Below, one piece after another: positions 1,570-15,976 of a stretch of DNA of 64,000 bases. Under the pieces are notes generated by a model, which made no database searches, was not told the origin of the DNA, and saw nothing but the letters and a program-made list of their open reading frames with translations. The stretch comes from Bryobacterales bacterium (GTDB lineage Bacteria > Acidobacteriota > Terriglobia > Bryobacterales > UBA6623), in assembly GCA_965238125.1 (NCBI GenBank), contig OZ250179.1, positions 2,918,723 to 2,982,722 on the forward strand. Reading direction: 5' to 3'. Within the stretch, counting starts at the first letter, position 1. Every line of letters begins with the position of its first letter. The position numbers and the translations under genes were made by a program.

Positions 1570-1701
1570 AGCGGTCCAATTATACGCGTCTTGCCCCCGC
1601 CTTCGCATGTGCGGCTCTGACGCCGCGAACCCCAGTACAGAGCGGTGACCGGGAAGGGCTTACTTTTGCGCGTTCATGTCGCGCATCCGCCGAGCGGCGG
1701 C

Positions 1702-2843
1702 CTTGCGGCAGATCTGTTGCGGCAGTCGGTCTACAGCCGCTTGGCGGGCTACGAGGACCTCAACGACGCCGAGCGGGTTTCGATCGATCCGACGTTTCGG
1801 CTGATCGGTTCGCAGAAGATCTGGGATCGCGGTGCGGCCTTGACCTCGACGCTGCACGGCTTCGAGACGGAGATGCCGGCGAGCGAAGAGAACCTGCTGG
1901 GGCTGATGGCGCTGAACCGAGAGCTGGTCGGGCAAGCGGAGGCGTTCGACGACTCCGAGCGGGTCGTTCTGGACATGGACTCCACCGAGAGTCCGGTCCA
2001 TGGCCAACAGGAAGGCAGTGCCTACAACGGACACTTCGAGTCGGTCTGCTACCACCCGTTGCTTTTGTTCAACGGTCATGGTGATTGCCTCGCTGCCAAG
2101 CTGCGTCCCGGCAACGTGCATAGCGCCGAGGACTGGGATGAGCTATTGTTGCCGGAGATCGAGCGCCAACAGGCTGCGGGCAAGCAGGTCGCCTTCCGGG
2201 GCGATGCGGCCTTTGCCAAGCCGGGAGTTTATGAGGCTTCGGAGGAACGAGGAGTACAGTACGCCATCCGCATTCCGGCCAACAGGAGCTTGGAGTTGGA
2301 GATCGAAGACATCCTGTTTCGTCCGCCGGGGAGGCCCGGCCGCAAGCCGCTAGTGCGCTACAAGAGCTTTCGCTATCAGGCGGAGAGCTGGAAGAAGCCG
2401 AGACGAGTTGTCGCCAAGGTCGAGCACCACCAGGGCGAGCTGTTCGCGCGCGTCGGTTTTATCGTGACGAACATGAGCTTGCCAAGCCGGTCGGTGGTGC
2501 GTTTCTACAACAAGCGCGGCACGGCGGAGCAGTGGATCAAAGAAGGTAAGCAAGCGACGCACTGGACGCGGCTGTTGTGCCGGCGGTTCCGGGCGAACGA
2601 GGTACGGCTACAACTCAGCGTGTTGGCCTACAACCTGGGAACTTATGGCGGCGGCTCGGACTGCCGAACAGGATCAAGAGTTGGTCCCTGACGAGCTTGC
2701 AACACAGGTTGATGAAGACCGGCGGTCGGCTCGTCAAGCACGCGTGGTATTACTGGCTGCTGCCGGCCGAGGGACATCTGAACCGCAGGCTGTTCGGTGA
2801 TATGCTCGGGCGCATCTGGGCGCTGCCGTTGCCGAGTGGGTAG
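1702..2843 (+). pseudogene. IS1380-family transposase, 5'-truncated and frameshifted
   Basis: LADLLRQSVYSRLAGYEDLNDA...LDMDST...FYNKRGTAEQWIKEGK is closely similar to the intact copy at 30421-31752. It lacks the first ~60 aa and has a 1-bp deletion near 2640 (CTGGGA-ACTTATGG). Confidence 0.9.
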
Positions 2844-3003
2844 CAACCCGCTTGCGAGTGCAAAATCTGAGGGCTAAGGAAGCAAGGCCGCAAGGGGTGT
2901 GTGAAAAATTGCCTTCGCAGCGGCGCCGCCCGAGACACTCGCCATACGGTCGATTTTCAGCTGTCGATCGCATTATGCCGCGCCAGTGCCCGGCGCGCAA
3001 CGC

Positions 3004-4468
3004 CAGAATTGTCCAACACAAGATGAGCCTGAAGGGGGGGCGTGTTTCCAACACAAGATGAGCCTGAAAGCAACAACAGCGACCACGGCGGGACAGGGCA
3101 CACTGCGGGGGAATGCCGATTACCATGCAGCATGCCGAACATCTCACGCCGACCGAGATGCAACCGTTTCTCGACGCCGGCGCCACGCTCAGTTTCGCCG
3201 GGACCGGCCGCCAACCCGTCTACGCGCTGATCCAACGCACCCTGCGTGCTTGCCAATACCCTGCTCTGTCCAAGAAAGACAAAGGGATCGTGCGCCGCTA
3301 CCTGGCCAAGGTCAGCGGACTCAGCCGCTCGCAAATCACCCACTTGATCGCCCGTTGGTGCGAGCGCGGCGTCATCGCACCGCGCGCTTCCAGACGCCGC
3401 CGCTTCCCGCGCCGCTACACGCCCGACGACATCGCTCGGTTGGCCGCCGTCGATGCCGCGCACGAAGGCCTCTCCGGCCCCGCCATCCGTCGCATTCTCG
3501 AACGCGAGTGCACAGTCTACGGCAAGACCGAATACCAACGATTGGCCGCGATTTCGCCCTCCCACATCTACAACCTGCGACGTACCCGCGTCTATCGCGA
3601 ACACCACGTGCACCACACCAAAACGCGGGCCGCGGCGGTGAGCATCGGCGAGCGGCGCAAGCCCGATCCGCGCGGCCGACCCGGTTACCTGCGAGTCGAT
3701 ACGGTGCACCAGGGTGACACCGATTCGAGCAAGGGCTTGTATCACATCAACGCCGTCGACACGGTCACGCAATGGGAAGTGGTGGGCTGTTGCCAAACCA
3801 TCTCCGAGGCCCATTTGAAGCCGGTTTTAGAGGCCGTGCTGCATCAGTTTCCCTTTCGCGTCCGCGGCTTTCACTCCGACAACGGCTCGGAGTTTCTCAA
3901 CTATCGGGTGGCCAAGTTGTTAGAGAAGATGAGGGTCGAGGAGTTCACCAAATCGCGTGCTCATCGCACGACCGACAATGCGTTGGTGGAAGGCAAGAAC
4001 GGCGCGGTGGTGCGCAAGCACATCGGACACGAGCCCATCGCCGCCGAGCACGCCGAAAAGTTGCAACGCTTCTACGCGGCCGATTTCAATCCCTATTTGA
4101 ACTATCACCGCCCGTGTGGATTCGCGACCGTGGAGACGGCTTCCAACGGCAAGCGCCGCCGTCGTTACCGGCTCGCCGACTACCGCACGCCCTGCGAAAA
4201 GTTGCTGTCGCTCGACGCGCTGGAGAGCTGTTTGAAGCCCGGGATTACGGCGGCGTTTCTGGAGCGACAAGCGGGGCGGATGAGCGATACCGAGTGTGCT
4301 TTGCGGATGCAGCGCCGCAAGAGAGAACTGCTCGACGAGTGCCGCGCGCGACGTTCAGCGATGGTTGGAGTCGCGCGGTCGGAGCCGGACCGAACGGTCC
4401 GGGATTCGACAGGGAGGGAGGGGGAAGGGGAAGCTCATGTTGTTTGCGAGCACAGGCCAAGCGCGTGA
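3004..4468 (+). mobile_element. ISNCY-like insertion sequence with rve/DDE transposase (CDS 3113-4468)
   Basis: 451-aa ORF with LRVDTVHQGD, FHSDNGSEF and DNALVEGKNG (DDE core). Left end has 22-bp direct repeats TCCAACACAAGATGAGCCTGAA (3012-3033, 3047-3068). A partial inverted copy AAGCTCATGTTGT lies at 4431-4443. Confidence 0.8.
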
Positions 4469-4469
4469 C

Positions 4470-5234
4470 CTGCCCCCTGGGTATGGTCCAGTTGGAATGA
4501 GAGAGCGACTGCGGGCATTCTTCCGATTCGGTCATGAGGCCGGCTGGATCGGCGAAAACCCCGCGTTCCGGCACAAGAACCCGCAGGTTACCGCACCCCC
4601 GACGATGCCGTTCGAGCGCGAGGAGATGATCCAGATCCTACGCGCCTGCGATCAGTACACAGACAATTACGGTCGCACAGGACAGGCGAACGCCAGGCGG
4701 CTCCGGGCGTTGGTGCTGGTGCTCAGATACTCGGGGTTGCGGATTGGGGACGGAGTCACACCTCCCAAGGATCGCGTCCGCGACGGGAAAGTATTCTTGT
4801 ATACGCAGAAAACCCGCGTGCCGGTCTACCTTCCCCTGCCCGCTTTCGTCGTGGAAGCCCTAGACGCCTGCCCGAGCACTGGCGCCGATTATTTCTTTTG
4901 GACGGGCGAATCGAAGAAGAAGAGCGCCGTGGGGGATTGGCAGCGATCCCTCCGCAAGCTCTTCAAGCTGGCCGGCGTGAACAGGGGCCACCCCCATCGA
5001 TTTCGAGACACCTTCGCGATAGAGCTGCTCCTACAGGGTGTTCCAATCGAGCGAGTCGCAGTCCTGTTGGGGCACTCACGCGTGAGGGTAACCGAAAAGC
5101 ACGATTCGCCGTGGGTGCGTGCTCGCCAGGAGCAGCTAGAGGCGGACGTGAGGCGAACCTGGGGCGAAGACCCCGCTGGTGCTTTCCGAAACGAAGGGTA
5201 CACCAGACGTACACGAGAGGGTCGATGCTGTTAA
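4470..5234 (+). pseudogene. Tyrosine recombinase/integrase C-terminal remnant
   Basis: ERLRAFFRF..GWIGENPA, SGLRIGD, HRFRDTFA, LLGHS motifs are present. The catalytic Tyr position reads KH-D-SPW (GAT at 5103-5105). The N-terminus is lost at the adjacent IS. Confidence 0.85.
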
Positions 5235-5253: not shown

Positions 5254-6078
5254 TTAAATTGGTGGAGGCTCTCGCATCTTCATTCGATCGGCGGGAATGC
5301 GCCATTCGGCCTCGTCGAGGTCGATTTCTGGCCACCGCGCCCTGCGCAGCTCGCCAGGGCGGACGAACACAAGGGGGGCCAGCCGCAAGGCGCACTTCGT
5401 CACGAAAAACCCTTCGTACGTGTCGATCGCACGAAGCAGCTCACCAATGCGCTTCGGTTCGATGATGGAGGCGTGGTGCCGTTCCTTGGGCGGAGGCAGC
5501 GCACCCCGAATATCGCCGGTCGGATCACGCTCCGCTCGGCCTGTGGCGATGGCGTACCGGAAGACCTGCCCGCAGTTCTGCATGGCGCGGTGGGCAGTCT
5601 CCACGGCGCCGCGGCTCTCTATCCGGCGCAGCACCGGCAGCAGTTCCGGCGCCCTGATGCTGGCGACCGGGCGCTTGCCAAGCCAGGGAAACAGGTCGTT
5701 CTCGAATCGCCGCAAGATGCGATCGCCGTGGCTTGCGACCCACCCCGGTGAGAACTTCGCGTGCCACTCCCGAGCGATGGCCTCGAAGCTGTCTGCGCCC
5801 GCGAGCGCGAGCTTCTGCGCCTTGCGGGCCTGCCCAGGATCGATGTCGGCGGCAAGCTGCTGGCGGACGGCGTCGCGCCGCTCACGGGCCGATTTCAGGC
5901 TGACATCTGGGTAGACTCCGAGCGAGAGCCGCTTTTCCTTGCCGCCGAAACGGTACTTCCAGCGCCACCATTTTCCGCCAGCGGGGCTGACCTCCAAGTA
6001 GAGACCTCCGCCATCGAACAACTTGCGTGTCTTGGCCTGCGGCTTGGCAGCGCGGACTGCGGTGTCCGTCAGCGGCAT
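5254..6078 (-). pseudogene. P4-like (IntA/CP4-57 type) integrase, C-terminally truncated
   Basis: MPLTDTAVRAAKP..KLFDGGGLYLEV..GGKWWRWKYRFGGKEKRLSLGVYP arm-binding domain, then FVRPGELR. The ORF stops at 274 aa (RMKMREPPPI*), before the HxxR and Tyr motifs. It lies immediately downstream of tmRNA. Confidence 0.9.
5260..5269 (-). repeat. att-like copy of the tmRNA 3' end (TGGTGGAGGC)
   Basis: 10/10 identity to 6246-6255. Preceded by an AT-rich stretch and GTACAC-containing arm-like repeats (5197-5213). Confidence 0.65.
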
Positions 6079-6918: not shown

Positions 6919-7482
6919 CTATATTCCCTTCCAGCGCGCCGCTTCGGGATCGGGGAGTCCCAGTAGGTCCAGCATTCGATCGACAAAGGCTTTGATGATG
7001 TCGTCGACGGTCTTGGGGCGCTGATAAAACGCCGGCATCGGGGGGGCGATCACGGCGCCCATTTCGGCCAACGCGGCCATCGTTCGCAGGTGACCCAAAT
7101 GGAGGGGCGTCTCGCGCACAGCCAGAATCAGCCGGCGCTTCTCCTTCAGCGTGACGTCGGCGGCCCGGACCAGCAGGTTCGAGGTGATACCGCCGGCGAT
7201 CGCGGACATGGTGTGGATCGAGCAAGGGGCGATCACCATCCCGTCGGTTGGGAATGACCCGCTCGCGACTTGCGCGCCGATTTGCTCGTTCGAATACCAA
7301 GCATCGGCCAGCGGCTTGATCTCGGCCAGAGCGGCGCCGGTTTCCTGGTGCAGGGTCTTTTCGGCGGCTCGTGTAACAATGAGATGTGTTTCGACGCCTT
7401 CTCGATGACGCAACGATTCCAGTAGCCGGACACCATAGATCGAGCCGCTGGCGCCGCTGAGTCCGATCACGATTCGTTTCAA
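6919..7482 (-). CDS. ubiX: Flavin prenyltransferase UbiX
   Basis: MKRIVIGLSGASGSIYG, ASGS, MVIAPCS, RAADVTLKEKRRLILAVRETP, PPMPAFYQRP. Confidence 0.96.
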   Translation of the reverse strand: MKRIVIGLSGASGSIYGVRLLESLRHREGVETHLIVTRAAEKTLHQETGAALAEIKPLADAWYSNEQIGAQVASGSFPTDGMVIAPCSIHTMSAIAGGITSNLLVRAADVTLKEKRRLILAVRETPLHLGHLRTMAALAEMGAVIAPPMPAFYQRPKTVDDIIKAFVDRMLDLLGLPDPEAARWKGI

Positions 7483-7589: not shown

Positions 7590-7983
7590 CTCAGAGTACG
7601 TCATCGATGGACGTTCCGTGCGGTTTTCTGAGCTTGTTTTAACATGGATCCGGGCCTCAAACTCAAGAAAGTTCGCGAAAAGCTGGGGTTGCGATACCGT
7701 CAGGTCGAGCAGGCGAGCAACCTCATTGCACAGCGCCACCGCAACTCGGACTACGTGATCGGCCTGAGTCGGCTGGCCGACATCGAAAACAAGGGGGTGG
7801 TCCCCAGCCTCCATCGATTCTACAGCCTCTGCGCCATTTATCGGCTGGACCTGACCGAGGTGCTCGAGTGGTACGGGATCTCCATTTCCAACATCTGGAA
7901 GGATTCGCAGACTCTGGCGCCTCCCGCTACTCACTTGGTGCCGACTCACGATGGTGCTCGCAGCTCCGTTTCGATGCCGCTTA

Positions 7984-9076
7984 CTGAGTCTCGCATAATA
8001 TACTGTCAATCGAGACAAAGAGAAGACTGTTTCCAGAAAGCGGTAATCAAGCGCGGTTTGCGGCGCATTCGCCGCAGCGCTTTGCGGGCGCGCTCGTCGA
8101 GTTCCCAGTAGTCCTTCGGGCAGACGTTGGGCAACTCGTGCTGCTTCCAGTACGCCCAAATGTATTCCACCGGGTTCAACTCCGGCGCATAGGGCGGCAA
8201 GTACTCCGTTGCGATGTGATCCTCGGAGAGCTGGATGAACTCCCGCACCAGGCGGCTGCGGTGCGCCGGCAGCCGGTCCCAGACGATCAGCAGTGGGCCG
8301 TCGATGTGGCGCACCAAAGCCTTCAGGAAGTCGATGACCTCCAGCTCGCCGATCGCGCCGGGATAGAGCCGGAAGTAAAAGTTGCGCAACGTCAGCCCGG
8401 CCGACACCGACAGCTTGTCCCAGTTGAAGTTGAACTCCAACACCGGTGTCTCGCCGCGCGGCGCCCAGGTGCGGCAACGATGCGGCTTCTGACTCAATCC
8501 GCTTTCGTCGATGAAGACGATCGTACGTTCTTCTTTGCGGGCTTTTTTTTAATGGCCGGCCAAGTCTTGCGCTGCCAGCCGCGGATGGCCTCTTCGTTGC
8601 GCTCCCGCGCTTTGCCGACGGGCCGTTGCGGGCTCCAACCGAGCGCCCGCAGGATCTTCCAGACATGGCCCTCGTGATAGCGCACGCCGAACTCGTCTCC
8701 GATCAGACGAGCGACCCGCGGACAGCTCCACAGCGGCGTCGGGAAGCCGTGCGCCTCGGGGCCTTCCAGCAGCAACGCCTCGAGGCGTTCGAGCTGCGCG
8801 GCGTGCAACAGCGGCTTACGGCCGGCGCGGCCGGCCTGGCGCAACCCGGCTTCGCCGTCACGCCGGTATCGTCGCAGCCACTCGCTGACGCTTTGCCGCG
8901 CGACCTTCAATCGCCTCGCTGTCTCGGACTGACTACAGCCTTGCTCGACCAACCGGATCGCTTTGAAACGGCGCTTCTCCAGGGCCTCGAAATCCCGCCG
9001 TACGCCTTTTGTATTTCCCATACATACAAAGACGTACGTACCCCAAAAAGATGTCATTTTATTTTGCGAGACTCAA
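7984..9076 (-). mobile_element. IS630-family element, apparently intact (transposase 8006-9021 via -1 programmed frameshift)
   Basis: 1093 bp with TIR (C/T)TGAGTCTCGCA(T/A)AATA and TA duplication (7982-7983 / 9077-9078). The HTH orfA is followed by an A8 slippery site (8543-8550) and orfB with IDES / VWDR / ELNPVE DDE residues. Confidence 0.93.
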
Positions 9077-9487
9077 TAAGCTCGAGCCGGGCCTGGATTT
9101 TCGCGAGAGCACCTACCTGAGTCGCATGATTCAGCAGTGGGGCAAGGTTCCCTTAAGTCTGTTGGACACCCTGGATCTTGAAGATCACCGCTACGGTTTC
9201 ATTGGGACCGACGACTATATGATGTATACCCGTTGGTGCGGCCCGGGTCGTTGGTGCAAATCGATGATTCAAGGACCAAGATCCGCCAGACGGGTTGGAC
9301 CAACGAGTTCGAGCGTCCCATCTACTTCTTCGAACTGCGCGACGCCTACGTGTGCTCGTGGTGCAACGTGAGCGGGGAGCACCTCATTCTGCAACCCCAC
9401 CACGGGTCGCCGTGCGGGCCGATGGTCTTGCGGAACCCGAGCCAAGTCGACGTGATTGGACAGGTAATCGGCGTGGCGATGCATCTA

Positions 9488-10580
9488 TTGAGTCTCGCAA
9501 AATAAAGTGACACCTTTTGGTGTTGCCGTACGTATTCTTATGTATGGGAACACCGAAAGGAAAGCGCCGTGATTTCGAAGCATTGGAGAAACGCCGTTTC
9601 GAAGCGACGCGTTTGCTCGATGAAGGACTCAATCAGTCCGAAACCGCCAGGCGTCTGACAGTCGCCCGCCAAATCGTCAGTGAGTGGCGACGACAGTACC
9701 TGGCGCAAGGCGAGGCCGGGCTGCGCAAGGCCGGCCGCGCCGGCCGCAAGCCGCTATTAGACGCCACGCAGCTCGAACGCCTGGAGATCCTGCTGCTCGA
9801 AGGCCCCGAGGCGCACGGCTTCCCGACGCCGTTGTGGAGCTGTCCGCGGGTGGCTCGTCTGATCCGAGACGAGTTCGGCGTGCGCTATCACGAGGGCCAT
9901 GTCTGGAAGATCCTGCGGGCGCTCGGCTGGAGCCCGCAACGCCCGGTCGGCAAAGCCCGCGAGCGCAACGAAGAGGCCATCCGCGACTGGAAGTGCAAGA
10001 GGTGGCCGGCCATTAAAAAAAAGCCCGCAAACAAGACCGCACGATCGTCTTCATCGACGAAAGCGGATGGAGTCAGAAGCCGCATCGTTGCCGCACCTGG
10101 GCGCCGCGCGGCGAGACGCCGCTGCTGGAGTTCAACTTCAATTGGCAGAAGCTTTCGGTGTCGGCCGGGTTGACGTTGCGCAACTTTACTTTCGGCTCTA
10201 TCCCGGCGCGATTGGCGAGTTGGAGGTCATCGACTTTCTGAAGGCCTTGGTTCGCCACATGGACGGCCCGTTGATGATCGTCTGGGACCGCTTGCCGGCG
10301 CATCGCAGTCGGATGGTGCGAGAGTTCATTGAACTCTCGCAAGGCCATATCGTGACGGAGTATTTGCCGGCGTATGCGCCGGAGCTGAATCCGGTGGAAT
10401 ACATCTGGGCGTACTGGAAACAGCACGAGTTGCCGAACGTCTGTCCGAAGGACTACTGGGAACTCGACGAACGTGCCCGCAAAACGCTGCGGCGCATGCG
10501 CCGCAAACCGCGCTTGATTACTGCTTTCTGGAAACAGTCTTCTCTTTGTCTCGATTGACAGGATATTATGCGAGACTCAA
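9488..10580 (+). mobile_element. IS630-family element, second copy (transposase 9544-10558, extra frameshift)
   Basis: 1093 bp with the same TIRs and TA duplication (9486-9487 / 10581-10582). A8 slippery site at 10015-10022. One T is missing near 10185 (AACTTTACT vs AACTTTTACT in copy 1). Confidence 0.93.
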
Positions 10581-10607
10581 TAAGCTACCACCGCGAGGAA
10601 AACAGGT

Positions 10608-11072
10608 CTACGTCGAAAGTTCGTTCCGCAGTACGTCTAAGATGAGTTCCAAGTCGGAGATGTAGAGCAGGCGTTCGGCCTCGCGCGTCTTGATGGGGAT
10701 CAAATTGTTGTAGGGGGCGAGAGTGAACCAGGTTCGCAGAATCGTTTCCCGGTCGTCTTCCAACGATCGGACGTATTCCTCCAGGTCGTCGCGCTGTCGT
10801 TCCAGGGGGAAATTCAGCCATTCTCCGAAAACACGTTCGTGACTTTCGCGCAAAATACGATTCGCTTCCTCGGTGGAATAGCGTTGGGCCAGCCCATAGT
10901 GGACGTAACCGCCGGAGTTTTCGTCGCGTAATCCCGATAAGTAGACAATCTTCCCAAAGAGGGTCGGAATCTGTGCAAGCGTGCGCCTCCACAGATCGTC
11001 CATGGCGAGATTCCGATCAGAACCGTCCGGGCTGTTTGGCGGCTCGGCCGGGTTGTTGCCGGTTGGCTCCAC
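10608..11072 (-). CDS. Hypothetical protein (154 aa), convergent with the HTH gene and divergent from the peptide operon
   Basis: Protein-like composition (DDLWRRTLAQIPTLFGKIVYLSGLRD...ILRESHERVFGEWLN); no recognised domain. Confidence 0.75.
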   Translation of the reverse strand: MEPTGNNPAEPPNSPDGSDRNLAMDDLWRRTLAQIPTLFGKIVYLSGLRDENSGGYVHYGLAQRYSTEEANRILRESHERVFGEWLNFPLERQRDDLEEYVRSLEDDRETILRTWFTLAPYNNLIPIKTREAERLLYISDLELILDVLRNELST

Positions 11073-11492
11073 ATCTCAATTCTAACGCCCTGATCGGGCC
11101 GACACAATCCACCAGAGGCTCTTCGGCCGTCTCGGCATCGAGTCGAGAACCCTTGCGTCGGAATCGGCTTTCGCTTTGGCGCTCTAGGACGGGCGGGGCC
11201 GGTCGCTGGACGCAACCTTCTGAATCCTTTTCCGGGGAGGAGGCGGGGCGCGCCTTGATCGCTGCGGAATCGCTTTGGATACGCTTTCGGAAACGCCGGG
11301 GACAAGCGCGTCGGGGGTCGAATGGGCGTGTCGTGGGATCTTCCAAGGGCGCTCCGAAACGATGTGAAAGAGTTTTATGTGCCGGAGCGTTCCGCCTTTG
11401 AAAAAAACAAGCTTTTTCTCCAATCTTTTGGCGACGATCGATTACGATTTGTGGCGGATGAGCCATCTAGTTTCCACAAAAGGAGAAATGCA

Positions 11493-11636
11493 ATGTTGAA
11501 GAACCTGCTCGTGATTGGAGCCCTGTTAGGAAAGCTGGCGATCGTGGGTCTGGCCCCTCAGCCCTCGGTCGGGAACGAAGCGGATTGCCCCTATTGTCCG
11601 ACGCCGGAATGCTTTCCGGGCGACTGCGAATGCTGA
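11493..11636 (+). CDS. Small secreted Cys/Pro-rich peptide (47 aa)
   Basis: AGGAGA RBS at 11481-11486, 6 nt before the ATG. Sequence MLKNLLVIGALLGKLAIVGLAPQPSVGNEADCPYCPTPECFPGDCEC: a signal-peptide-like N-terminus and 5 Cys in the last 16 aa. Confidence 0.8.
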   Translation: MLKNLLVIGALLGKLAIVGLAPQPSVGNEADCPYCPTPECFPGDCEC

Positions 11637-11780
11637 AGGCGCGCACCGGGAGAAGTGTTTCGGTCGTGATGTAAGTGATTTTAACTACAATGGGGTGGAG
11701 TTCTATAAAATCTTTCTGCTCCATTGTGGTAATCTGGTGGCGTCTTTTGACAATGGGCGGTGCAGTTCCGGCCGGACCGG

Positions 11781-11808
11781 GACTTGACGCCCTCCTGACT
11801 TGACGCCC
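11781..11808 (+). promoter_or_regulatory. 12-bp direct repeat GACTTGACGCCC x2 immediately upstream of the 7-TM gene
   Basis: Exact copies at 11781-11792 and 11797-11808. Confidence 0.5.
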
Positions 11809-11810
11809 GA

Positions 11811-12587
11811 ATGACAGCCGCTCTCGGATATGGGTTATACCTTCTGCCCGGCGTGGCACAGCTGGCCTGGGCCGCGCGTCTACGGGGCTTGCGTCTGTTG
11901 TCCAGCTATCCCTCTCTCGCTCTCTATCTTCTGTTTTCCACTCTCAGTTCGTGGCTTGTGCTGACGGCGCACTACCTCTATCGCGGCAGTGAAGCGTACG
12001 GCTGGTTTTTCGTTGTGACTCAGCCGGTGGGCTGGACGCTGTTGTTATGCGTCGTGCTGGAGATCTACCAACGGATGATCCGGGGCTACGAAGGCTTGGG
12101 CCGGATGGGGCGGTTGGTGATGTACGGCGCGGTGGGCGCCTTGGCTGTCGTCTTGACGTTCCTATTGTTGCTGGATAAGCCCGACGGCGCCCTGGGACAG
12201 TGGCGGAACTTTTGGTTCCGCCAAGAGAGATCGGTGTATTTGGGCCTGTGTGGGTTGAGCGTAGTTCTGGCCGGATTCGGCGCCTATTTTCATCTGCGCG
12301 TGGGGAGAAACGTTGTTGTGGTGTTCAGTGCTTTCGGAGCGTTGTTTGTCGGACAGGCTCTTGTTTTGACGTTCGTGGAGCATTTTGAAGGAATGGTGGC
12401 CTGGAAGGATACAGCCCTGCCCCTTTGGCACGGAGCCTGTTTGCTGTGGGGAGCGGCGGCCTTTTCGCTACGCGGCGAAGACAGGCCGGTGAAGGAATCC
12501 GCGGCGTTGACGGCTGCGGCGGAACCTGTCTTGGTGCGGCAGCTGGAGGTTCTGAACCGGGTGCTGCTAAGGATGTTACGACCATGA
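11811..12587 (+). CDS. Hypothetical polytopic membrane protein (~7 TM, 258 aa)
   Basis: About seven hydrophobic segments, YPSLALYL after TM1, and an amphipathic C-terminal helix QLEVLNRVLLRMLR. No kinase or other cytoplasmic output domain. Confidence 0.85.
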   Translation: MTAALGYGLYLLPGVAQLAWAARLRGLRLLSSYPSLALYLLFSTLSSWLVLTAHYLYRGSEAYGWFFVVTQPVGWTLLLCVVLEIYQRMIRGYEGLGRMGRLVMYGAVGALAVVLTFLLLLDKPDGALGQWRNFWFRQERSVYLGLCGLSVVLAGFGAYFHLRVGRNVVVVFSAFGALFVGQALVLTFVEHFEGMVAWKDTALPLWHGACLLWGAAAFSLRGEDRPVKESAALTAAAEPVLVRQLEVLNRVLLRMLRP

Positions 12588-13162
12588 CGACCCTATTGCT
12601 GGTGTCCGTAATTCTCGTCGTTCTTCCCTTGCTTTTGGGAGGAATCGTGATGCGTCTCGGCCGCCGCGCCGAGAGCGTGGACGGCACGGCGGTGTCGTCG
12701 TTGATGGAGTCGATGAATCGCGAACTGAGCTATCTTCCGCTGCAGCGGTTGCTTTTAGGCGGGGACATCGAGTTTCTCCGTGATCAGCCGGGATTTCACG
12801 CTCGGCTGGAGCGTCGTTTTCTCCGGGAGCGGCGTACGGTGGTATTGACCTATCTTCGTCAGATGCACCGGGATTTTGATTTGTTCTCGGGATTCTGTCG
12901 TGACATAGTCGTGCGCAGTCCCAAACCCGGGCTCGCGGTGCTCATCGTCAAGAGGACGATTCTGTTTCACTTTGTTTACGCGGTTTTGATGATCAGCTGC
13001 CGTGTGGGTTCCCCGACTGCGGCCCGGACGTCGTTCGAGCGTCTTAGCGGCGCGATCGCGGATTTGCGACGCGAAGGTGCGCACAAGTGGGCCTTGACAG
13101 CGCGACCGTCGGAATCCTGGGCGTCTTCCACCACGGCGGCGGGGTCGGCGATGGGCGCGTAG
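12584..13162 (+). CDS. Hypothetical membrane-anchored protein (192 aa)
   Basis: ATGA overlap with the upstream stop. N-terminal TM MTTLLLVSVILVVLPLLLGGIVM, then YLPLQRLL..DIEFLRDQPGF..ERRTVVLTYLRQMHRDF. Confidence 0.8.
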   Translation: MTTLLLVSVILVVLPLLLGGIVMRLGRRAESVDGTAVSSLMESMNRELSYLPLQRLLLGGDIEFLRDQPGFHARLERRFLRERRTVVLTYLRQMHRDFDLFSGFCRDIVVRSPKPGLAVLIVKRTILFHFVYAVLMISCRVGSPTAARTSFERLSGAIADLRREGAHKWALTARPSESWASSTTAAGSAMGA

Positions 13163-13849
13163 GTCCGAGGGGGGCCGGAGATCCCCGGCACATTTGTTCC
13201 AACACTGCCGGCTCCAGGGCCGGCGTCTTGGCCTGCCAAGGCTGGGCACGTGCGCGGTGCGCACCCTGATAGCCTGCGGTGCAAATCCGACTAAGCGAAG
13301 CAGCGGGGACAGGGTCGTCTCCATGAATCCGCCGCATTCGTAACACCGCCATGAAAATGGGTGTCGACGGGCCGAAGGGTCGGGCGCGAGGTTCCTGCCG
13401 CCCTCTCAGGCTTGCCCGAGTTGGGATTCTACTCGCGGCTCCGCCTGCCGGCTCTGCCCCGGGCTGGATTGCCGCCACCGCTTTACGGCTGTGGCCGTTT
13501 GCGATTTCACGAGCGGTAGCGTGATCCCTGAAACGATCAAGGGCGATCTTCGAAGGCGTCCGCTTCGCGCCAAGAACACTGACTGATTGAGCGGAACTGA
13601 TTCAGTCGGCACTTGGGACAGCGCTCCCATTTTTTCACGGGCCCCGGGATCGGACCAGGTTCCACCGGTCGTCTTGACTTGGTTGCTCCGGGCGATCCGG
13701 AAGTAATTGCTAAGTTTCTGAGGCGTCTAACCTTATATACTAAAGCTGCAGTCTGTCGGATGGTGGGAAGCGGCTGGCTTCCGCCTTGATCCGATTCCCC
13801 TTGGGCTTGCCGTGGTTGGTGGAACCGCGCGAGCTGTCCGTTTAGCCGA

Positions 13850-15976
13850 ATGGGTGGAATGCGCAATCTCCCCGACGTCCCGACCCTGGATGTCTTTCTT
13901 GGGCTGGTTTCCGCCATTCTGCTATTGCTGGCTCTTGTGTATGTGGCCCGCGAGCGGCCTGAGACGTTCCGCGGTTTTCGGAGAAGGCCGCGGCGACGCG
14001 AGCACCACCCGGTCATCTTTCAAGATGTCTTCCTGCCGGATTCCAATCGAGGACTGAGTTTCATCGGCTCGCTGTTTTGCCACATGGTGGGCTTTTCGTT
14101 GGTCCCGTGGATGCAGTTTGTGGCGCCGCGGGTTACGATGCCCGACGCGCGGGCGCCCGAAATCGTGGAGTTGGACTACCGCATCCCGGACATTCCCGTG
14201 GTTGCGCCCGAAGACCTCTACGAAGAGAAGCAGGACGAGGACTCCTCCGAAGAACGCGACAACGGCGGGAGTGAGGAAGAAGGGGCGAGTTCCAAGCCCG
14301 CCGAAGCCGCCGCCGAGAAAACTCCGAAAAAGGGCGAGGAGGCTCGGGAAGCGCCTGCTCCACCGCCCGAGATCGCGACCGCGCCCGAGCCGCCGAAACC
14401 CGAGCCCCAGGTCTTCCAACAAGTTTTCAAGGTCATATTGCCCGAAATCGTCGGCAAGCACCGCTCACTCAAAGAGATCATTCTGCAAACGAACTCTCTT
14501 CTCGAATTGCCTCCCGAGTACGCGCCGCAATTGCCGCCGATATTGGCCTGGACCCCGAACCCTTTACCACTCGAAAGCGGCATGGTCATCGAACCCGGAC
14601 ACCAACAACCCGAGACCATCGAGCGCTGGGAACTGCCCGAGCAGGTCTCGCACCTCGCGGCCCCGAACCGGGAAATCGTCTTGGCGGATCTCAGCGTGAC
14701 GCCCGTGCCTGTGCTGGTCGAGGACCCGGCGCTGCCAGTCCCGGCGGCCAATGTCCTTCCGCTGGCGGGCTTGGAGATGCCCGAGCCGGTGCAGCCTGAA
14801 CTGCCTTCGCTGGCCGAAGGCGAATCGCGGACGACTCTGATCGCCCTCAGCCAAGAACCAAACCCGCTCACTCCCTCATTTCTGCTGGAAATGGGATTGC
14901 GCTTGGGATCGCTCGACAGCGCGATGGAAGAGGTCGAGGATCCCCCCGCTCAGAGCGAGGCGGACGAAGAAGAGCCGGAACAACCTCCCGAGCCCGAGCC
15001 ACCCCCGGAGCCTGAACAACGGCTCGACGAACAGCCGGTTGAAACGGCCTTGGATACCGCGGACGAGACCGCCGATCCCACGCCCGAGCCGACCGACGCC
15101 CCGCCGACGATCGTCGAGAGTGACGCCCCAATCACCTATGACGAGGTGGCGCCGTTCCCGGCGGAGTTCGACCTTTTCGCCGCGGAGGGTGTTTCCGATG
15201 TGGCCCCAATGATGGCGCAAGCGGTCGACTTCGAAGCTGAAGGCGAGGGACGGGGCGGAACCGCGACGGAGGGCGCCGGTATGGACGAAGAAGTCGCGCC
15301 GGTGGAAGTGGTCGACATTGCCTCGGTGCGGGTCGGAGGGTCGGGAGACCCGAGCCTCGGCGGGCCGGCCATCCTGGAACTGCCCGGCTCCGGAGGGCCC
15401 GGCACGGGGAATGAAGGCGAAGGAGAAGGCAAAGAGTCGCCTGAAGCAAACGAAGGCGACGGCAAGGGGACCCGAACGGGCAGCGGCACGCTGAAGCCTT
15501 TGTCGAGAAAGCAATACGGCATTATTTTGGTGTCGAACGTGCAAACGACTCTGACCAACACAGCCGGCATCCTCAAGGGCAACCCGATCTATATGATTCA
15601 CCTCGATGTCCCCGAAGCACTGCGGAAATGGACGTTGCAATTTTGTATTCCCGGTTCCGGCTCGCGAAAACTCGATACGTCGACAGGCATAATTCGGATA
15701 CTTCCCAAGAAGAAAGTCGCGCCGCCGTTTCCACTAGAGCAGAAGCCGCTGCGGCTCGAGGCGGCGCCGGCGACGCCGGAGCGGCCCTTGGAAGTGGTGA
15801 TTTACGCGATCGTCGACGAAGAAGGCGGATTGGGCAACCTGAGGGTAGTTCATGGCGCGGACCCGCAAACGGACAACACGATCCTGGCGCATCTGGAATC
15901 GTGGGATTTCTTGCCGGCCTTTCGCGGAGAAGAGCCGGTTCTCGTGGAGGCGCTGTTCGGCATTCCACTCCCGTAA
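13850..15976 (+). CDS. TonB-like protein: two N-terminal TM segments, long acidic Pro/Glu-rich linker, C-terminal TonB_C-like domain
   Basis: C-terminus VVIYAIVDEEGGLGNLRVV..DNTILAHLESWDFLPA..GEEPVLVE resembles TonB_C. EPEP/PEPE repeats. Confidence 0.65.
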   Translation: MGGMRNLPDVPTLDVFLGLVSAILLLLALVYVARERPETFRGFRRRPRRREHHPVIFQDVFLPDSNRGLSFIGSLFCHMVGFSLVPWMQFVAPRVTMPDARAPEIVELDYRIPDIPVVAPEDLYEEKQDEDSSEERDNGGSEEEGASSKPAEAAAEKTPKKGEEAREAPAPPPEIATAPEPPKPEPQVFQQVFKVILPEIVGKHRSLKEIILQTNSLLELPPEYAPQLPPILAWTPNPLPLESGMVIEPGHQQPETIERWELPEQVSHLAAPNREIVLADLSVTPVPVLVEDPALPVPAANVLPLAGLEMPEPVQPELPSLAEGESRTTLIALSQEPNPLTPSFLLEMGLRLGSLDSAMEEVEDPPAQSEADEEEPEQPPEPEPPPEPEQRLDEQPVETALDTADETADPTPEPTDAPPTIVESDAPITYDEVAPFPAEFDLFAAEGVSDVAPMMAQAVDFEAEGEGRGGTATEGAGMDEEVAPVEVVDIASVRVGGSGDPSLGGPAILELPGSGGPGTGNEGEGEGKESPEANEGDGKGTRTGSGTLKPLSRKQYGIILVSNVQTTLTNTAGILKGNPIYMIHLDVPEALRKWTLQFCIPGSGSRKLDTSTGIIRILPKKKVAPPFPLEQKPLRLEAAPATPERPLEVVIYAIVDEEGGLGNLRVVHGADPQTDNTILAHLESWDFLPAFRGEEPVLVEALFGIPLP

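Follow-up and report, generated by a model that had tools for sequence, protein, structure and literature searches.

A family of small, predicted exported cysteine- and proline-rich peptides encoded in a conserved gene cassette of Bryobacterales

Introduction

The closest described counterparts of the gene reported here are the bufferins, which derive from BufA precursors and are MNIO-modified, periplasmic, copper-binding peptides that are made by the ribosome and modified after translation (RiPPs; 10.1101/2024.03.18.585515), the RRNPP systems of Firmicutes (PlcR/PapR, NprR/NprX, Rap/Phr and Rgg/SHP), the Agr system (AgrD/AgrB/AgrC), the PatX/PatS peptides of filamentous cyanobacteria and, in eukaryotes, the peptides that act on G protein-coupled receptors (GPCRs), such as the yeast alpha-factor/Ste2 pair and the oxytocin-like disulfide loops. 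The gene in question lies in a 64,000-nucleotide stretch of contig OZ250179.1 from a Bryobacterales bacterium (hereafter the window) and encodes a peptide of 47 amino acids (aa). Comparison with its relatives confirmed that this 47-codon gene is real and placed it in a large, unannotated family of small peptides, predicted to be exported, whose common element is a cysteine pair flanked by prolines. No description of the peptide family, or of the cassette that carries it, was found in the literature searched.

The cassette consists of an XRE-type regulator, a ~150-aa cytoplasmic protein encoded on the minus strand, one or more peptide genes, a seven-transmembrane (7TM) protein and a single-pass protein of ~180 aa, and this gene order is the same across Bryobacterales genomes and metagenomes. 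The regulator is adjacent to the pro-peptide in about 100 loci. Our leading interpretation, which we put forward tentatively and from sequence comparison, is that the exported, disulfide-looped peptide would be the extracytoplasmic signal of this five-gene regulatory cassette and would be sensed by the 7TM protein. A cassette of this type, in which a ribosomal exported peptide is accompanied by cognate membrane and regulator genes, has a substantial chance of being a categorically new signalling system.

Each of the bacterial systems named above shares some features with the locus. As with the bufferins, export would be to the periplasm of a diderm bacterium and the peptide is encoded with a membrane protein and dedicated regulation (10.1101/2024.03.18.585515); the precursor likewise combines a hydrophobic N-terminal export segment with a cysteine core. 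However, the adjacent MNIO (DUF692) enzyme and the DUF2063 partner that define bufferins were found by Pfam neither among the window neighbours nor at ~12 independent loci. Bufferin cores comprise 60-100 residues with a protein-like fold, whereas those described here comprise about 12-20 (17 in the window), and the window peptide has no match to the DUF2282, BUF_6/12Cys or EGKCG families of Pfam and NCBIfam. Bufferin membership was rejected because the defining MNIO/DUF2063 enzymes are absent.

As in the RRNPP systems, an XRE-type helix-turn-helix (HTH) regulator stands beside a pro-peptide of ~40 aa with a Sec signal and a C-terminal active part. Here, however, the regulator has an unclassified C-terminal domain with a CxWC...PH motif instead of a TPR domain and is far more conserved than the peptide, the cassette adds a 7TM and two further proteins, and the host is a diderm acidobacterium in whose cassette Opp import is not encoded. 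RRNPP membership was rejected, since the regulator has no match to a TPR peptide-binding domain at E <= 1 and no relatives in the PDB. The Agr system also sets a short ribosomal peptide with an essential cysteine beside polytopic membrane proteins, and the pair diverges fast. It differs in that neither an AgrB-family protease nor a histidine-kinase receptor was found here by Pfam and NCBIfam, including among 130 members of the 7TM family, in that a Sec signal takes the place of the amphipathic leader, and in that a cysteine pair suggests a disulfide rather than a thiolactone. The absence of the AgrB protease and the AgrC kinase led to rejection of Agr membership; SCIFF-type membership was rejected in the same way, its defining enzymes or domains being absent. 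Finally, PatX/PatS (PMC12756182) resembles the present family as a small Sec-signal precursor in a diderm that gives rise to a short diffusible regulatory peptide, and differs by its RGSGR motif, with no cysteine pair, 7TM partner or cassette gene in common.

Results

The 47-codon gene is under purifying selection

A preliminary description of the window had proposed a 47-aa open reading frame (ORF) behind a strong ribosome-binding site. Both are present as described (Table 1), and the GGAG is kept before the peptide genes at all homologous loci. As that description had also remarked, a mechanical ORF list places the start at 11322, giving 104 aa. An in-frame TAG closes this extension in aligned relatives, in which the ATG at 11493 and its GGAG are conserved; the start shared with relatives is therefore 11493, not 11322.

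Among 5.8 billion proteins searched, three relatives of the window peptide with 81-83% identity were found, two of them called as 47 aa and one (P0003) called from an upstream start as 72 aa. The gene is uncalled in L007-L009, L025 and L106 (locus labels are ours) and called as 47 aa in several assemblies, so the expectation that annotation pipelines would miss or mis-start it holds for some assemblies and fails for others. Between relatives, the proportion of synonymous differences (pS) is 0.22-0.82 against 0.05-0.21 for nonsynonymous differences (pN), and the ratio of nonsynonymous to synonymous rates (dN/dS) is 0.09-0.39, in leader and core alike. This indicates that the peptide ORF is a translated gene under purifying selection.

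Residues 1-30 are predicted to form a hydrophobic N-terminal export segment, and residues 31-47 form the acidic core DCPYCPTPECFPGDCEC. These last 17 residues comprise five Cys, four Pro, four acidic and no basic residues, with a net charge of about -4. The export signal and Cys/Pro core originally proposed are supported. Pfam and NCBIfam scans gave no match for the window peptide.

A family of looped-peptide candidates at a shared position

The 7TM protein is too divergent, with no conserved stretch, to anchor a metagenome scan, and the conserved regulator was used as the anchor instead. This regulator-anchored scan added 80 loci from at least 539 relatives. Profile searches and a small-ORF scan were then run over all 106 sources, and counting was restricted to the 75 loci that have the 150-aa gene and, downstream of it, a gene for the 7TM or the 180-aa protein. 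Of these 75 Bryobacterales loci, 71 carry one or more signal-peptide ORFs with a Cys pair. The remaining four are L040, which has a Cys-less variant, and three loci without a recognisable peptide, all three of which also lack the 7TM gene. Close 7TM homologues (68-89% identity) all have a 47-aa gene directly upstream, annotated or not, and distant ones (25-30% identity) have a small gene at the same position (Table 1). The test set in advance, namely whether similar peptides stand beside homologous 7TM genes, was thus answered positively, even where the 7TM proteins are only 25-30% identical.

At the shared position the family takes the form of one to nine tandem small genes or of a single gene with five or six repeated cores. 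The family core is [D/E]xPxPxCxPC, placed after a predicted Sec-type signal peptide and commonly ending in R/K. Among 73 unique peptides of 34-75 aa, proline occupies position -4 relative to the first Cys in 58 and position -2 in 61. Exactly two Cys are present in 62; two residues separate the Cys in 61, mostly as CxPC (CWPC 17, CFPC 12, CLPC 7, CNPC 5), and the second Cys is followed by Pro in 43. A C-terminal R or K occurs in 41/73 single-core peptides. In 64 of 69 unique peptides, the first Cys is preceded at a distance of 3-12 residues by a small-x-small site, which is typically AxA with D or E after it. Mature family members would be about 12-20 residues long, proline-rich and mostly acidic or neutral. 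The Cys-less variant of L040 (2423-2533; MIQKLFVVLLLASGIAAAASQHLQQFPGPSPNPHLQ) keeps the signal peptide and the proline pattern without the Cys pair.

The clade of the window peptide (with L029, L031 and L039) is atypical, with four or five Cys and a longer N-terminal segment that has a central Lys. Its core, PTPECFPGDC, corresponds to the PxPxCxP..C pattern with a two-residue insertion. The preliminary description had given weight to the odd Cys count, as a pointer to a thiolactone or an interchain bond. This emphasis is not upheld: what is invariant across the family is a single Cys pair, only the window's clade has the fifth, C-terminal Cys, and the cassette has no conserved tailoring enzyme, whether AgrB-like, MNIO, radical-SAM or other. 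The family-wide pair makes a disulfide a better candidate than a thiolactone.

Cleavage after ..GNEA, as originally proposed, agrees with the A/DC boundary seen in the clade alignment (L029, L031 and the window type; the slash marks the cleavage point), but the residue at -3 is N, E or D, which makes cleavage of the window type plausible and not assured. N, E or D at -3 is unfavourable for signal peptidase I. Together with the long N-terminal segment and its conserved mid Lys (..GALLGKLAIVGLA..), this would suit an uncleaved, membrane-anchored mini-protein, at least in the window's clade, whose Cys-rich tail would be tethered in the periplasm as a subunit of a 7TM complex. We give this alternative little probability, given the textbook AxA followed by D/E in most other clades (64/69), the multi-core precursors that imply released peptides, and the conservation of the A/DC boundary within the window's own clade.

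Peptide copies number one in 65 loci and two, three, four, five or nine in others. Near-identical tandem genes of 37-38 codons, each with its own GGAG and separated by gaps of about 22-40 nt, are present as nine copies in L024 (3655-4855), five in L060 (5382-6039) and five in L033 (5411-6150). Two loci encode multi-core precursors. In L052 (2042-2575) one signal peptide is followed by six TDDPLPCPGCDWR repeats with spacers GEVETTQKVSD(L/M)R, and in L038 (about 5365-5750) by five TDDLFPCPDGDCK repeats with spacers TAVNR. Because the spacers between repeated cores end in Arg, released peptides of about 12-17 residues with a basic C-terminus are implied; by sequence, these precursors imply processing after basic residues by some protease.

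These features also bring in the reading of the peptide as a periplasmic thiol or metal buffer, in which the exported CxPC peptide would be a bulk redox-active or chelating molecule, bufferin- or metallothionein-like in function. Its induction would depend on a regulator that itself responds to thiol or metal stress, and the membrane proteins would handle or sense the peptide. We consider this main rival of the signalling interpretation rather unlikely, while noting that several observations agree with it. The sole invariant chemistry is a Cys pair with a thioredoxin-like spacing (CxPC), next to which His, Asp or Glu are frequent, and the window-type peptide has five Cys and four acidic residues. 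Amplification into 2-9 identical tandem copies is reminiscent of metallothionein genes, whose dosage amplification is known. For small Cys peptides that are exported by Sec and buffer copper, the bufferins are a precedent (10.1101/2024.03.18.585515). On the other hand, a bare CxxC in an oxidising periplasm should form a disulfide, which would end metal binding, and the conserved PxPx scaffold, together with the R/K at the C-terminus and the cleavage spacers of the multi-core precursors, points to protein recognition instead of simple chelation. In addition, the cassette has no conserved gene for MNIO, DUF2063, DoxX or a thiol reductase, as judged by a Pfam scan of the window neighbours and by the other loci.

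An uncalled peptide gene (MLKRAALLLALAVSLTTATVSAIELPLPMCYPCEYPPLPECPPGG) was also found at about 3763-3900 of L106, a Ca. Solibacter usitatus metagenome-assembled genome (GCA_016191645.1), together with a copy of the upstream palindrome (TGTTCTGAATTCCGAAAA) and of the promoter-like element before the 7TM gene (TGCTAAACT) described below. The cassette therefore occurs in a genus with a cultured representative.

The cassette has a fixed position and two evolutionary rates

Across the order, the cassette is found at one chromosomal position (pheA/ubiX ... sprT/fabH), which suggests vertical inheritance rather than a mobile competition island. Its parts evolve at different rates. In mean normalised divergence, the mature peptide (0.76), the signal peptide (0.78) and the 7TM protein (0.75) contrast with the regulator (0.33) and the 150-aa protein (0.44); the peptide, the 7TM and the 180-aa protein are fast-evolving, and the regulator and the 150-aa protein are slow.

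The fast evolution of the peptide and the adjacent membrane proteins, the multiple tandem peptide copies and a separate, plausibly constitutive promoter for the membrane protein would all be expected of a Sec-dependent bacteriocin or toxin peptide for which the 7TM and/or the 180-aa protein provides immunity. This reading is nevertheless improbable. The mature peptides, of about 12-20 residues, are proline-rich and acidic or neutral instead of cationic and amphipathic, the conserved chromosomal position suggests vertical inheritance, no secretion or lysis gene is available for passage of the outer membrane, and there are no matches to PADLOC or to toxin families. A class II Sec-dependent bacteriocin (cationic, amphipathic, about 30-60 aa) was specifically rejected for the window peptide on the basis of its mature length and charge. 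The cassette region has no PADLOC matches, and an anti-phage defence reading was rejected on this ground.

Some loci deviate from the full layout. A sub-clade of nine loci (L041, L042, L044, L045, L058, L059, L063, L074 and L104) has the regulator, 150-aa and 180-aa genes without a detectable 7TM gene. The peptide is present in six of the nine (e.g. HDPIPECWPCPFVK), and the other three have no recognisable peptide and retain the palindrome. At L026 (2344-3580) and L027, the regulator and 150-aa genes occur as a pair without a peptide, 7TM or 180-aa gene, and a major facilitator superfamily (MFS) transporter gene follows them. The slow regulator/150-aa pair may be the ancestral core, to which the peptide/7TM module was an add-on.

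A receptor-like 7TM protein and three further partners

With the exception of the regulator's HTH, no part of the cassette received a family annotation from Pfam or NCBIfam. An exhaustive profile search recovered 1269 clusters (at 50% identity) of the 7TM family at E<=1e-3 and 691 at <=1e-10, all of about 255-265 aa, and comparison of 130 members with Pfam gave no consistent family. An AlphaFold2 model built from the family alignment has a mean predicted local distance difference test score (pLDDT) of 91.2 and a predicted TM-score (pTM) of 0.86, with seven helices and a C-terminal helix at 237-256. By the positive-inside rule, the topology is predicted to be N-out/C-in. Conservation is concentrated on the cytoplasmic side: within the helices, the cytoplasmic third has 2.14 bits and the periplasmic third 1.45 (p = 1.5e-7), inner loops have 1.89 bits and outer loops 1.22, and the C-terminal helix reaches 2.18 bits. 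The most conserved residues (Y33, E84, G95, N167, G222, E223 and N249) are on the inner face, and there is no invariant Cys, a point that also speaks against thiol or metal buffering.

A Foldseek search of the PDB with this model placed GPCRs and microbial rhodopsins as the nearest folds, with non-significant scores (best E 0.035, TM-score 0.35-0.50). Eukaryotic peptide-GPCR pairs share with the cassette an N-out/C-in 7TM protein with an amphipathic helix after TM7, a variable outer and a conserved inner face, and precursors with tandem cores and basic-ended spacers. They differ in that no G proteins are involved here and in that the structural match is not significant. The resemblance to GPCRs and rhodopsins is a topological analogy only and no sign of homology.

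The 180-aa gene is found downstream in 58 loci. Its product is predicted to have one N-terminal transmembrane helix, almost no periplasmic part and a helical cytoplasmic domain. For the window copy of the divergent 150-aa gene, the true start is probably the ATG at 11003. Its relatives are 131-156 aa long, 43-54% identical across clades and without a signal peptide, and Y56, H58, H78, W85, W115 and D140 are near-invariant. The 3' end of the gene overlaps that of the convergent regulator gene. A single-sequence structure model of the protein was poor (pLDDT 58).

Intact regulators match HTH_31/HTH_3 (XRE-type HTH) and have an unclassified C-terminal domain of ~170 aa. Over 92 sequences, a motif C205-x-W207-C208 ... 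P219-H220 (L003 numbering) is near-invariant in this domain and, judging by its residues, could be a metal site or a redox switch, echoing the CxPC of the peptide. This motif, with the invariant His residues of the 150-aa protein, is a further point in favour of the buffer alternative. A LexA/CI-type S24 C-terminal domain was tried and rejected: hhalign against E. coli LexA gave 0.4% probability, and neither a Pfam S24 match nor a PDB match was obtained. The regulator, 150-aa and 180-aa proteins have no sequence relatives of solved structure in the PDB, and the last two also have no Pfam match.

If the peptide were a RiPP precursor, its tailoring enzyme would be encoded elsewhere or would be the 7TM or 150-aa protein itself. 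RiPP loci typically have precursor genes in tandem and precursors with several cores, the invariant His/His/Asp set of the 150-aa protein could bind metal, and Glu84, Asn167 and Glu223 are conserved in the 7TM protein. But these 7TM residues face the cytoplasm, whereas the core is exported, and the 150-aa protein, being without a signal peptide, could act only before export and is transcribed divergently. Given also that no cassette protein matches a known RiPP enzyme family, a RiPP origin is very unlikely.

A palindrome and separate promoter-like elements

Upstream of the first peptide ATG, a palindrome with the consensus TGTTCYGAAWTCRGAAAA occurs at a distance of 91-192 nt (mostly 100-122) in 47 of 59 unique upstream regions. 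Looser variants are present in most of the others, and L078 has a perfect TGTTCT-N6-AGAACA. About 36 nt downstream of the palindrome lies a conserved TAnnnT hexamer, which reads TAACCT in L024 at the same spacing; this spacing would place the palindrome near -60 of the putative promoter. Of 48 unique spacers between the last peptide gene and the 7TM gene, 38 contain a second element, the extended -10-like TGnTAnAnT, where shuffled sequences would give 2.4. With this element of its own before the 7TM gene, the peptide gene(s) and the 7TM/180-aa genes look like separate transcription units, while tandem peptide copies only about 22 nt apart would share the regulated promoter. A generic sigma-70 scan of 11050-13300 called no promoter, TACGAT included, and the proposed promoter elements were defined from cross-locus conservation only.

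The stem-loop that follows the peptide gene in the window's clade (Table 1) keeps its stem through paired changes in L003 and L011. It has no T-run, and the intergenic regions have no Rfam match. From its sequence, it may be a partial terminator, an mRNA-stabilising hairpin or a second operator.

The regulator is interrupted in the window

In the window itself, the regulator gene is broken into three fragments by two insertion sequence (IS) copies (Table 1). In five other genomes of the window's clade it is independently disrupted, by IS insertion in L001 and L012, by rearrangement (inversion) in L006, by a frameshift in L019 and by truncation in L017, and it is intact in L003/4, L007-9 and L010/11. 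The IS of L012 is 99.5% identical to the first IS630 copy of the window. L012, in which the regulator is broken, and L011, in which it is intact, share an identical 7TM protein, which indicates that the disruption is polymorphic within a population. Such recurrence reflects either recurrent selection for loss or an IS630 hot spot. With the regulator destroyed in this genome, the loop is open and the peptide would be either constitutive or silent.

Because the window peptide ends in Cys, a LanD/EpiD Cys decarboxylase was considered as a partner. The flavoprotein at 6919-7482, 4 kb upstream of the peptide, scores 256 bits on the UbiX subfamily model (cut-off 188); it is UbiX, and it is absent from the cassette in L025, so this candidate was rejected. 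Downstream of the cassette, a 708-aa ORF (13850-15976) with a long Pro/Glu/Ala-rich low-complexity middle has no Pfam, NCBIfam or PADLOC match; its place after the cassette is confined to the window's clade (L007 and L011, 697-706 aa). Mobile genes at 1645-5234, comprising an IS1380-family transposase (1645-2691), an IS481-like transposase (3113-4468) and a tyrosine recombinase (4296-5234), mark this part of the genome as rich in IS elements.

Table 1. Features of the window around the peptide gene, and peptides at distant loci. Positions are window coordinates unless a locus is given; a slash marks the proposed cleavage point.
Feature	Position or locus	Strand	Remarks
Peptide gene	11493..11636	+	ATG 11493-11495, stop (TGA) 11634-11636; product MLKNLLVIGALLGKLAIVGLAPQPSVGNEADCPYCPTPECFPGDCEC, 47 aa
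Shine-Dalgarno AGGAG	11481..11485	+	7 nt 5' of peptide ATG
Palindrome copy GTTCCGCCTTTGAAAAAA, putative operator	11389..11406	.	104 nt upstream of peptide ATG
TACGAT, candidate -10 hexamer of peptide promoter	11443..11448	+	columns invariant in clade alignment; 36 nt past palindrome
17-bp stem-loop, specific to window's clade	11684..11730	+	just 3' of peptide gene; z = -3.1 for region
TGGTAATCT, extended -10-like element before 7TM gene	11727..11735	+	TGnTAnAnT consensus
7TM membrane protein, 258 aa	11811..12587	+	no Pfam/NCBIfam family; seven helices and C-terminal amphipathic helix
Single-pass protein, 192 aa	12584..13162	+	ATG overlaps 7TM stop (ATGA)
~150-aa cytoplasmic protein (154-aa ORF)	10608..11072	-	divergent from peptide gene; found in 99 loci
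XRE regulator pseudogene, fragment 1 (codons 1-113, HTH domain)	7644..7982	+	tblastn with intact L011 protein
IS630-family insertion 1 (DDE_3)	7979..9078	-	interrupts regulator gene
XRE regulator pseudogene, fragment 2 (codons 114-249)	9078..9487	+	frameshift near 9220; tblastn
IS630-family insertion 2	9486..10585	+	inverted, 87.6% identical to insertion 1; interrupts 3' part of regulator
XRE regulator pseudogene, fragment 3 (codons 249-269)	10580..10642	+	overlaps 3' end of convergent 154-aa gene, as in relatives
Distant-locus peptide	L013-16, L020		..ATA/ELPWPGCFPCRVTVAGR
Distant-locus peptide	L021		..VS/HHSVRDIPQPPCWPCCPPATPPNCGGGSLR
Distant-locus peptide	L022		..SYDPIPGCFPCPESR
Distant-locus peptide	L023		two copies of ..ATA/DWHDPIPHCFPCPYSK
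Distant-locus peptide	L024		nine tandem copies of ..AAG/DRSDPIPHCWPCPYSN
Distant-locus peptide	L025		uncalled ..VSA/DIPFPPCSPNCVVSTGSSR

Discussion

Under the signalling interpretation favoured here, the precursor would be exported by Sec and cut by signal peptidase, in the window type after ..NEA, and multi-core precursors would additionally be cut after R/K. The Cys pair would be oxidised in the periplasm to give a small disulfide loop; for the window-type peptide, two loops and one spare Cys are possible. The peptide would then bind the variable outer face of the 7TM protein, whose conserved inner face and C-terminal helix, with the coupled single-pass protein, would relay the signal to the regulator and/or the 150-aa protein. 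These would act at the palindrome (TGTTCTGAATTCAGAAAA) and thereby control peptide output. This proposal is consistent with the fixed synteny, the presence of a peptide in 71/75 loci and the small-x-small export site in 64/69 peptides. It also agrees with the release of short peptides implied by the multi-core precursors and by the R/K ends of 41/73 single-core peptides, with the fast evolution of the peptide, 7TM and 180-aa proteins beside a slow regulator and 150-aa protein, with the receptor-like character of the 7TM protein, its variable periplasmic half and conserved cytoplasmic face, and with the palindrome and the separate extended -10 of the 7TM gene, which imply separate control.

Several observations weigh against this proposal. 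Peptide and 7TM co-diverge beyond phylogeny (partial Mantel r = 0.50, p = 5e-4), but the signal-peptide control is equally strong (r = 0.60), and the co-divergence was therefore rejected as specific evidence for a cognate pair. Six loci of the sub-clade described above (L045, L058, L059, L063, L074 and L104) have a peptide and a 180-aa gene with no detectable 7TM, and the regulator/150-aa pair occurs without a peptide, as at L026. The regulator is broken in six genomes of the window's clade. Pfam and NCBIfam scans of the cassette proteins found no kinase, cyclase, GGDEF or other recognisable transmitter domain, and although the hosts have an outer membrane, the cassette encodes no export route across it. 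The nine identical tandem copies of L024 would suit a bulk product better than a signal, and the cleavage site of the window type is non-canonical.

A wider form of the signalling proposal, possible but doubtful, is that the cassette represents unrecognised peptide-hormone-like signalling in Bryobacterales and perhaps in other Acidobacteriota, with a 7TM protein of GPCR topology that would read Sec-exported looped peptides, derived from tandem genes or multi-core precursors, and report to an XRE regulator by way of a novel single-pass partner and a novel cytoplasmic protein. With similar reserve, this could be quorum or autocrine signalling in a diderm phylum, no part of it homologous to known signalling families.

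Whichever function applies, the analysis exposes a conserved cassette in which only the regulator's HTH belongs to an annotated family and in which the 7TM protein by itself comprises >1200 sequence clusters. Annotation pipelines often miss the small genes central to it. Testing the hypotheses is straightforward: at their predicted mature length the peptides can be synthesised, the promoter and operator candidates are delimited, and natural regulator knock-outs, the window among them, exist. Bryobacterales Acidobacteria are among the most abundant soil bacteria, and to our knowledge very little is known of their communication and environmental sensing. Should the peptides prove to be thiol or metal buffers, they would parallel the bufferins but need no enzyme. 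Should they prove to be signals, the cassette would be one of the rare examples of signalling by ribosomal peptides among diderm bacteria, and its receptor would have a GPCR-like topology.

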